Assembly (NCBI GenBank): GCA_002104945.1
Contig: MCFH01000059.1
Location: 186,001-250,000 of the forward strand
DNA length: 64,000 nucleotides
Direction of reading: 5' to 3'
Origin: Piromyces finnis finn
Lineage: Eukaryota > Fungi > Neocallimastigomycota
Both the position numbers and the translations under genes were made by a program. Shown in pieces: positions 60,209-61,873 of the stretch (position 1 is its first letter; each line of letters opens with the position of its first letter). The notes below the pieces were generated by a model, which made no database searches, was not told the DNA's origin, and saw only the letters and a list, made by a program, of their open reading frames with translations.

Positions 60209-61873
60209 CTATTTCTCTATTCCTTTTTTTTTATTTTTATTATTCTTAATTTTATTATTCTTATTATTCTTATTCTTATTCTTATACTTATTCTTATTAT
60301 CATTATTATTATTATTATTATCATTATTATTATTATTATTATTATTATTATTATTATTATTATTATTATTATTATTATTATTATTATTATTATTATTATT
60401 GTTGTTGTTGTTGTTGTTGTTGTTGTTGTTGTTGTTGTTATCATTACTGCTATTATATATACCTGTAATTAATTTTGAAGATATAGAATTTAAACTATCT
60501 TCAGTATCATAAAAGACATCTTGGATAACATTATATGGGTCTTCAAAAGATAACTTTGACATGAATGAAAAATTGTCATTTTTCATTCCAAATCGTGACA
60601 TTGATAGAATTTTATTATCTTGGCACATAAAATTCGTTAATAATTCTATGTGTTGATTTTTGCACGATGAACCATTATTAACAATTTTTTGTAATTGCTT
60701 TAATATATTCTTTTTACGCGATTCAAAATCAACATCCATTAAATTGCCATAAACTATATAGCGAGAACGATCTTTATCAACATATTCGTTTTCAAAAAGA
60801 GGTCCCAAGTTTGTTCCAGTAACTTCGATAATAAATTCATCATTATAGTGTTTAGGTACAACTTTAATAACCCCTTTAGTTCCACTTAATACCACATTAT
60901 TTAATATTTTTTTAATGCCATTATTATTTAATTCTACAAAATCACTATTAAGTAAGTAGTATTTACCCTTATCTTCAAATTTTATTTTATTATTATTTAA
61001 ATAATTTATTATTAATTCGTTTTTAGCCGTATTTTGCAATTCATTAGAATTGCTATCATCGTCATTATCACTATAACTAATATCAGGTGAATTATCATTG
61101 GTTTCCCCAGTTTCATCTACCTTTATTTTGTTTTTATTTATATTTGGTTTAAAAATACATAATATTTCCATATCAACAATATATTCAACTTGATTTTCGT
61201 CTAACCAATCAAGTAATTTTGAAGCAGGCTGTGAAAATTCAATATATAGTTCAGTTAAATTTACAATTGAATCCCATTTACTAATGCTATTACCTGTCTT
61301 CTCTAAATATTCTTTTATACAATTAAAAATAATTTTTGGATGAATTTTATATTTAAATATGGCTTGTTTACATAAAAAAAAACGAAGACAAAAACCATCA
61401 TAAACAACATCTAAAACTACATCATTTAAAGCAATATATCGCATACTATTCAGTATTTTTTTCTTTAAGTTACTATCATAATCTTTAGATTTTAAATAAA
61501 ATTCTACCACGTCATAGTCTACTTTGTTTTTTGTTATATTATGTAATTCTTTTACTCCATCGATATTATCTTTATCACCATTTAATTTATGAAAATAACT
61601 TAACGCTAATTGTGTAACTGGCTCACCTATAGATTGAGCTGCCAATATGCCAACGTGTGTATTACTTTTAATTTTTTTGTCTTCAATCTTTTGAATTATA
61701 TAATTTACGAATTTATCAGGATTGAATTTTTCTGATTTTGGCTTTTTACTTAAAAAGGTTCGTACTTTATCATTAATTTCGCTAATGTAAGGTTGTAATT
61801 TTTCATCTTTTTCGAAATTTTTTGATATTTTATCACATATGCAATTAATTTCTATTTCTGATAGAGATTCCAT
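60209..61873 (-). CDS. RPB1-like: Stand-alone C-terminal half of a multisubunit RNA polymerase largest subunit (Rpb1 domain 5 / RpoA2-like), intronless, probably of large-DNA-virus origin
   Basis: Trigger loop VGILAAQSIGEPVTQLALSYFH at aa 74-95; GTKGVIKV; TGTNL; HIELLTNFM; SRFGM; LSFEDP..I. No NADFDGD half is present. ATG sits in an A-rich context only about 330 bp downstream of the Rpb2-like stop. Confidence 0.88.
   Translation of the reverse strand: MESLSEIEINCICDKISKNFEKDEKLQPYISEINDKVRTFLSKKPKSEKFNPDKFVNYIIQKIEDKKIKSNTHVGILAAQSIGEPVTQLALSYFHKLNGDKDNIDGVKELHNITKNKVDYDVVEFYLKSKDYDSNLKKKILNSMRYIALNDVVLDVVYDGFCLRFFLCKQAIFKYKIHPKIIFNCIKEYLEKTGNSISKWDSIVNLTELYIEFSQPASKLLDWLDENQVEYIVDMEILCIFKPNINKNKIKVDETGETNDNSPDISYSDNDDDSNSNELQNTAKNELIINYLNNNKIKFEDKGKYYLLNSDFVELNNNGIKKILNNVVLSGTKGVIKVVPKHYNDEFIIEVTGTNLGPLFENEYVDKDRSRYIVYGNLMDVDFESRKKNILKQLQKIVNNGSSCKNQHIELLTNFMCQDNKILSMSRFGMKNDNFSFMSKLSFEDPYNVIQDVFYDTEDSLNSISSKLITGIYNSSNDNNNNNNNNNNNNNNNNNNNNNNNNNNNNNNNNNNNNNNNDNNNNNNDNKNKYKNKNKNNKNNKIKNNKNKKKGIEK
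60290..60445. repeat. (AAT)n/(AAC)n trinucleotide expansion encoding poly-Asn in the Rpb1-like C-terminus
   Basis: Directly visible (TTA)n(TTG)n on the + strand; produces shadow ORF 60217..60444. Confidence 0.95.

Follow-up and report, generated by a model that had tools for sequence, protein, structure and literature searches.

The polymerase locus of Piromyces finnis

The window, a 64-kb stretch taken from a 323,665-bp contig of the gut fungus Piromyces finnis, harbors at its right-hand end two neighboring genes of a viral-type RNA polymerase, which lie on the reverse strand beyond an intron-containing host gene. The features of this region are as follows:

58241..59145, forward strand: host gene with an MSP domain (VAP/Scs2-like), intron-containing, its 5' exons further left; host side of the insertion
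59146..60208: non-coding stretch of 1063 bp that separates RP1c from the nearest host gene, 13% GC
60209..61873, reverse strand: RP1c, 554 aa, core conserved over residues 1-473; stand-alone C-terminal half of the largest subunit of a viral-type RNA polymerase
60209..60454, reverse strand: Asn/Lys tail of RP1c derived from a microsatellite, past the conserved C-terminus and without conservation in relatives
61586..61654, reverse strand: trigger-loop motif VGILAAQSIGEPVTQLALSYFHK, RP1c residues 74-96
61874..62204: spacer between RP1c and RPB2, 331 bp, 10% GC, with poly-A/poly-T; site of the D5 primase-helicase and PolB in related copies
62205..64000, reverse strand: C-terminal 597 aa of RPB2, a viral-type second-largest subunit, intron-free, running off the window

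The open reading frame of RP1c begins with ATG, is readable without any intron and covers the trigger loop, the jaw/cleft and the clamp end, and the probability that an open frame of 471 codons would arise by chance at the local composition is about 1e-14. An HMM search against Pfam, which the sequence-only reading of this DNA had proposed, returned Rpb1_5 as the sole domain (E 5.7e-21), with entry into the profile at position 61. As that reading had stated, the frame opens about 73 aa ahead of the trigger-loop motif (HVGILAAQSIGEPVTQLALSYFH starts at residue 73), and the RPB2-like stop, at 62205, lies about 330 bp away. Its claim of a stand-alone gene is borne out by the presence of Rpb1_5 only, by the 331 bp that separate the frame from the RPB2 stop and by a Met start common to the whole family, on account of which a last exon of a host Rpb1 was rejected. 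A DFDGD-like motif is absent from all six frames across the 64-kb window.

The final ~80 codons of RP1c constitute an (AAC/AAT)n microsatellite tail, which follows the conserved end ITGIY. The protein has been annotated in P. finnis as ORX42871 (460 aa), which is 100% identical to RP1c of the window over residues 1-449. In this gene model (window 60209-60530, reverse strand, and 59990-60040), splicing removes 24 conserved C-terminal residues together with the Asn tail; its 3' end was rejected because the conserved VIQDVFY...ITGIY segment is thereby lost, and relatives favour the unspliced frame. Four sequencing runs, the RNA nature of which is only guessed, contained 0.40-0.88 of the words, values that do not amount to evidence of expression.

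The visible part of RPB2 is matched by the Pfam domains Rpb2_6 and Rpb2_7, and its segments PRLTFQ, NQEDS, GDKFASRYAQKG, PSRMT and LQHQV align with active-site segments of yeast Rpb2, while its relatives measure 1037-1177 aa. At otherwise invariant columns, RP1c deviates at 7 of 90 positions and RPB2 at 9 of 269, which falls within the family ranges of 1-14% and 0-10%, respectively; the RP1c value (7.8%) is the second highest among 13.

The genes next to the polymerase pair (MSP/VAP, WD40 and CLP1) are intron-broken eukaryotic genes, while RP1c and RPB2 are both intron-free, and the pair is thus integrated among fungal genes. When 1199 viral ORFs were compared with the window by tblastn, matches were limited to the two polymerase genes and a host GalE. 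No PolB was found in the spacer separating RPB2 from RP1c or beyond the end of RP1c, nor did any PolB-like tblastn match appear in the window with these queries, which had not been selected as close PolB relatives. Likewise, RP1n (the N-terminal half of the largest subunit), D5, SNF2 helicase and MTase genes are all missing from the 64-kb window. The stretch 59146..60208 holds no helicase ORF, and its repeats are AT-rich simple repeats only, without a terminal repeat. Within the window, no insertion boundary was found around the pair, and the candidates for terminal repeats of an element were rejected as simple AT repeats.

Several other observations were made in the window. An intron-free ORF of 276 aa (19022-19852, reverse strand) carries the motif C-x3-T-K-x5-C-x3-C-x6-YCGIH, which resembles DUF5763-type zinc fingers; it has no Pfam match and an Atlas lead of 0.76 to a T5orf172/MUG113/DUF5763 cluster, and is possibly another virus-derived gene. 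A subtilase with a Cys-rich C-terminal module is located at 16771-18114 (forward strand), and a multi-exon gene at 26956-32255 (reverse strand) resembles the big gut-fungal genes of membrane-receptor type. A 134-aa "ORF" at 56721-57125 was discarded as a simple ATTT/ATAT repeat without a gene.

A multicopy family in gut fungi

The protein search with RP1c gave 33 matches, 20 of them close, and all six named close ones belong to the Neocallimastigomycota (Piromyces, Anaeromyces and Neocallimastix). For RPB2, 15 proteins were retrieved at 61-78% identity, after which the values drop to about 32% (28-41% for the remaining listed matches). Among the 57 family members with a length of 400 aa or more, a set in which near-copies and the annotated protein of the window itself are counted, the Gln of QSIGEP stands at residue 80-100 in 55, and DFDGD occurs in none; the two exceptions to the former have it at 34 and 413, the latter in a gene model of 703 aa whose N-terminus is unrelated.

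At 90% identity, clusters reach 57 proteins for RP1c and 83 for RPB2, which are derived mostly from two Neocallimastix genomes (40 members inspected in each), while RP1c of the window forms a cluster of one, with no other protein of the collection within 90% identity. RP1c and RPB2 of Neocallimastix are found on shared contigs, and in seven contig pairs their accession numbers are 3-5 apart, which, as gene spacing inferred from accession numbers alone, corresponds to two to four intervening genes; no gene intervenes in the window. Both genes are also carried by contigs of 42,490, 52,796 and 27,531 bp. On two Neocallimastix contigs, like genes recur 15-16 accessions apart (clusters of P0012, P0041, P0157, P0164, P0182 and P0184), which suggests head-to-tail arrays of a unit of about 15 genes. 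Several full-length family proteins (P0007, P0008, P0011 and their clusters) sit on contigs of 1.5-2.0 kb, barely longer than the gene, which could be transcript assemblies or the result of breaks at AT-rich spacers. In Anaeromyces robustus, P0010 is 51% identical to RP1c of the window and lies on a contig of 119,790 bp.

A metagenome scan yielded at least 80 distant loci, dominated by the generic AAQSIGEP pattern, with no close locus among the matches listed, and scans of viral collections with family patterns gave distant matches or none.

The breakpoint is that of viral RP1c proteins

The sequence-only reading had compared the start of the gene with that of archaeal A'', and this part of its claim has to be given up, as the window protein starts approximately 15-20 aa further upstream than A''. 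Its other comparison, with an M..L...EI..I start of viral type, holds: the window has the motif. A profile search of 1.84 billion representatives produced 131 distant matches among those listed, including 45 short proteins with a Met start, of which 33 are viral-like, seven archaeal-like and five unclassified, the last being dropped from the offset count. The QSIGE motif is offset by 80 residues in the window, by a median of 82 in the viral-like proteins (n=33) and by 40-67 in the archaeal-like ones (n=7), and the L-x3-E-I-x2-I start is present in 27 of the 33 viral-like proteins and in none of the seven archaeal-like ones. P0295 is counted among the 33 on account of its N-terminus, though its best BLAST match is an unsplit virus.

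The clearest counterpart is encoded in a giant-virus bin (G001), which possesses a stand-alone RP1c of 671 aa starting MSRKRLLTEYEIDSI and, on another contig, an RP1n of 1028 aa. This RP1c aligns with the gut-fungal family end to end from residue 4 onward (probability 98.5%, 25% identity). Viral RP1n proteins end at Rpb1_5 position 66 and RP1c of the window begins at 61, so that they are complementary. Seven viral loci were retrieved with the RPB2 pattern of the window. In one 261-kb viral record (L162:9274-20035), RP1c, a kinase, RP1n and RPB2 are clustered on one strand. In another locus (L171, bin G002), about 500 bp, which probably represent a self-splicing intron, break RP1n within its DFDGD motif, in the middle.

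The sequence-only reading had drawn a viral parallel to some irido-, marseille- and pithoviruses. The AlphaFold model of RP1c is poor (pLDDT 49.7), and the Foldseek scores were consequently set aside, only target names and lengths being cited. In the BFVD viral structure library searched with this weak query model, polymerase entries of Pithovirus and Orpheovirus measure 692-887 aa, while those of IIV-3 and one marseillevirus measure 1377 and 1382 aa and are apparently unsplit. The parallel therefore fits the pithoviruses and does not extend to irido- and marseilleviruses in general.

The trigger loop

The alignment with yeast Rpb1 upholds the residue assignments made from the letters: Q88, L91, F94 and H95 of RP1c correspond to Q1078, L1081, F1084 and H1085, and S92 takes the place of N1082. 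In addition, the equivalent of T1083 is Tyr. Ser at the N1082 position is shared by 53 of the same 57 family proteins, and N1082S is a trait of the family and not decay of the window copy. Taken with the QSIGEP offset and the missing DFDGD, this count implies that the whole family is characterized by a stand-alone start as well as by the unusual trigger loop. The RP1c proteins of the giant viruses (G001 and L162) differ in having retained the Asn, with TLN[ST]FH in place of the ALSYFH of the gut-fungal family. The active-site residues of the trigger loop and of RPB2 are conserved at the locus, and the catalytic Asp triad would be expected on RP1n.

Phylogeny

In a tree of 32 hand-picked rows, the family and 13 split viral RP1c proteins form a clade (support 97/85) apart from archaeal, unsplit viral and eukaryotic rows, and the archaeal rows constitute a clade of their own (100/100) that excludes the family. 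The stem of the family is very long (2.7 changes per site), an AU test did not reject a sister relationship of the family with archaea (p 0.39), and an earlier tree of 40 rows with a single split viral row had left the family unplaced. In a tree of 27 RPB2 rows, likewise hand-picked, no particular sister group emerges, and the family falls outside six eukaryotic Pol II rows, among them Neocallimastix's own RPB2 (support for that group 83/88). Anatomy and gene company favour a viral origin, which phylogeny alone does not prove here.

Relation to the fundsalphavirus elements

In 2020, Gong, Zhang and Han described 14 fungi, P. finnis among them, that carry endogenous NCLDV-like elements with a relationship to Pithovirus, which they termed "fundsalphaviruses" (PMC7017919). 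According to the accessible parts of that paper, the genes common to them are D5, PolB, SNF2 helicase, MTase, RPB2, RPB5, RP1n and RP1c, with RPB5 listed for the non-gut-fungal copies only; RP1 and RPB2 are placed with NCLDVs in the published trees, and gut-fungal rows are absent from the MCP and A32 trees shown there (PMC7017919). The P. finnis copies are ordered UDG-RP1n-MTase-RPB2-D5-POL-RP1c(-helicase), and the A. robustus contig MCFG01000208.1 (119,790 bp) is drawn as POL-RP1c-helicase (PMC7017919); these orders of Fig. S2 were taken from text without arrows, which conveys gene order and not orientation. The orders of different copies, so far as given in that paper, are circular permutations of one another. 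Since the contig of P0010 has the same 119,790 bp as MCFG01000208.1, RP1c of the window is tied to the published RP1c family.

Six PolB-anchored loci have been reported for P. finnis (857073, 296419, 246453, 168386 and, twice, 127315; PMC7017919, accessible parts), and the window contig is none of them. A copy without an adjacent PolB would be missed by such a screen, with which its absence from the list is consistent. The host species, the split RP1c, the RPB2 neighbor and the multicopy state are all as in the fundsalphaviruses, while the window copy differs in that RPB2 abuts RP1c without D5-PolB, that no helicase follows and that no retrotransposon ORF occurs on the visible side. The sequence-only reading had remarked that the A' gene is missing between B and A''; in related elements, D5-PolB occupies that position, and in other P. 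finnis copies RP1n lies upstream of RPB2, so the comparison with the archaeal operon does not apply. Judged by gene content and sequence, the polymerase pair is a member of the published fundsalphavirus family, a statement that is restricted to the RP1c and RPB2 genes and not to a complete element, since no PolB was found in the window.

Both the division of the subunit and its occurrence in P. finnis have thus been reported before, and the finding as first written is not new. In the literature searched (with subscription journals and bioRxiv supplements outside reach), the name fundsalphavirus is used by Gong 2020 alone, and no paper was found on activity or domestication of the gut-fungal copies. 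A link to the Mycodnaviridae was dropped; gut fungi are unmentioned in the passages searched.

Comparison with other split or viral-type polymerases

In NCLDV-like regions of the moss Physcomitrella patens, reported in 2014 by Maumus et al., RP1n and RP1c are encoded separately and are under purifying selection, and the arrangement was called analogous to archaea in the part of the paper that was accessible (PMC4083422). The order RP1c-RPB2-RP1n given for Physcomitrella in the accessible figure of Gong et al. (PMC7017919) means that RP1c adjoins RPB2, as in the window. These regions differ in their plant host and in carrying RPB5, TFIIS, FLAP, SSB and capping genes, and no moss protein was among the named matches of the RP1c searches. 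The split RP1n/RP1c of giant viruses shares with the fungal family the offset of about 82, the N-terminal helix motif and the end-to-end alignment, as well as a YAQKG variant of RPB2, which was itself part of the selection pattern; unlike the fungal element, these are free viruses of several hundred kb. Archaeal Rpo1N/Rpo1C are similar in being split between bridge helix and trigger loop and in overall domain content, whereas Rpo1C has a shorter N-terminus (offset 40-67 in seven archaeal-like matches) without the motif, and the operon runs B-A'-A''. The cytoplasmic virus-like elements of yeasts (pGKL-type linear plasmids) are, according to the partial sources available, also capsid-less, fungal and equipped with their own NCLDV-derived two-subunit RNA polymerase. 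In pGKL-type elements, beta and beta' parts are joined in one large subunit, and the DNA polymerase is protein-primed. The window RPB2, in contrast, ends normally at Rpb2_7, and its relatives carry D5 and an NCLDV-type PolB.

Origin and fate of the window copy

The stand-alone RP1c behind RPB2 is very probably the end of an integrated fundsalphavirus element, represented in the window by a deleted, replication-incompetent and uneroded copy. The split is unlikely to have arisen in the fungus and was probably inherited from a viral lineage related to the pithoviruses. RP1c would supply the trigger loop and a separately encoded RP1n the NADFDGD metal site and the bridge helix, and the two would combine with RPB2 to form a two-barrel polymerase belonging to the element itself, in the manner of the archaeal halves. 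The D5-PolB genes between RPB2 and RP1c, plus the helicase after RP1c, have likely been lost from the window copy, which in that case could not replicate by itself, and RP1n may be situated either upstream of RPB2, beyond the window, or in other genomic copies.

Three other explanations have been weighed. It is improbable, though the least so of the three, that the copy has been domesticated, the fungus keeping RP1n, RPB2 and RP1c as an extra polymerase or as a trans helper that transcribes other copies. Both ORFs are open with their active-site motifs kept, the neighbor is an ordinary host gene and not retrotransposon debris, RP1c is alone in its cluster at 90% identity, and the spacer resembles host intergenic DNA (10% GC, homopolymers) while the tail is a host-type microsatellite, which together suggest long residence. 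However, the elements themselves are AT-rich, so that the spacer need not be host-made; conservation relative to other copies may reflect selection before integration; no orthologous locus was seen in another species; and RPB5 is listed by Gong et al. only for non-gut-fungal copies, in the accessible parts of that paper. A transfer of rpoB and rpoA2 from archaea, for example from a gut methanogen, with A' lost or moved, would agree with archaeal A'' proteins as the best distant named matches, with the AU test and with archaeal rows as the nearest by path in the RPB2 tree. It is nevertheless highly unlikely, as the breakpoint offset and the N-terminal motif fit viral RP1c and not A'', the first Atlas match of RP1c is a 90%-viral cluster, and no close relative was found across 185,579 prokaryote species scanned with two patterns in one genome each. 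Moreover, the family is accompanied by NCLDV-type D5, PolB and SNF2 helicase genes, and the trees of Gong et al. put RP1 and RPB2 with NCLDVs (both from the accessible parts of PMC7017919). Marginally less credible again is a divergent host paralog (Pol IV/V-like) that was split within the fungal lineage, despite its embedding among intron-rich host genes and the fact that eukaryotic Pol II supplies the best non-family BLAST/PDB matches of RPB2 (~32%): introns are absent, the family lies outside the eukaryotic RPB2 rows, copy number ranges from few to dozens, and other copies are co-located with viral replication genes, as the accessible parts of PMC7017919 already report.

With the integrated fundsalphavirus element as the preferred reading, a more far-reaching proposal can be put forward as a speculation that would more probably fail than hold. 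Instead of being giant-virus fossils, the gut-fungal fundsalphaviruses may be live, compact, capsid-less replicons (~15 genes, 15-50 kb) that amplify in tandem and would retain a DNA polymerase, a D5 and a split RNA polymerase of their own, with the window copy as a transcription-only derivative. The basis cited for it consists of the clusters of 57 and 83 proteins at 90% identity, the recurrence every 15-16 genes inferred from accession numbers, metagenome contigs of 27-53 kb with both genes and the lack of gut-fungal rows in the MCP/A32 trees of Gong et al. Pithoviruses have atypical capsid genes, which weakens this proposal. Under this proposal, the window copy could be a viral polymerase retained by the host.

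Significance

What is new is an unlisted copy of a kind missed by PolB-anchored screens, which differs only in the absence of DNA-replication genes between RPB2 and RP1c; a breakpoint shared with a large class of viral RP1c proteins and not with archaea; and the occurrence of the family, intact and in very high copy number, in newer Neocallimastix genomes and in gut metagenomes. If the elements are active, cultured anaerobic fungi would allow bench work on a minimal transcription machine of NCLDV type, its trigger loop being naturally N1082S/T1083Y, and on the question of whether viral RNA polymerases can be retained by a host.
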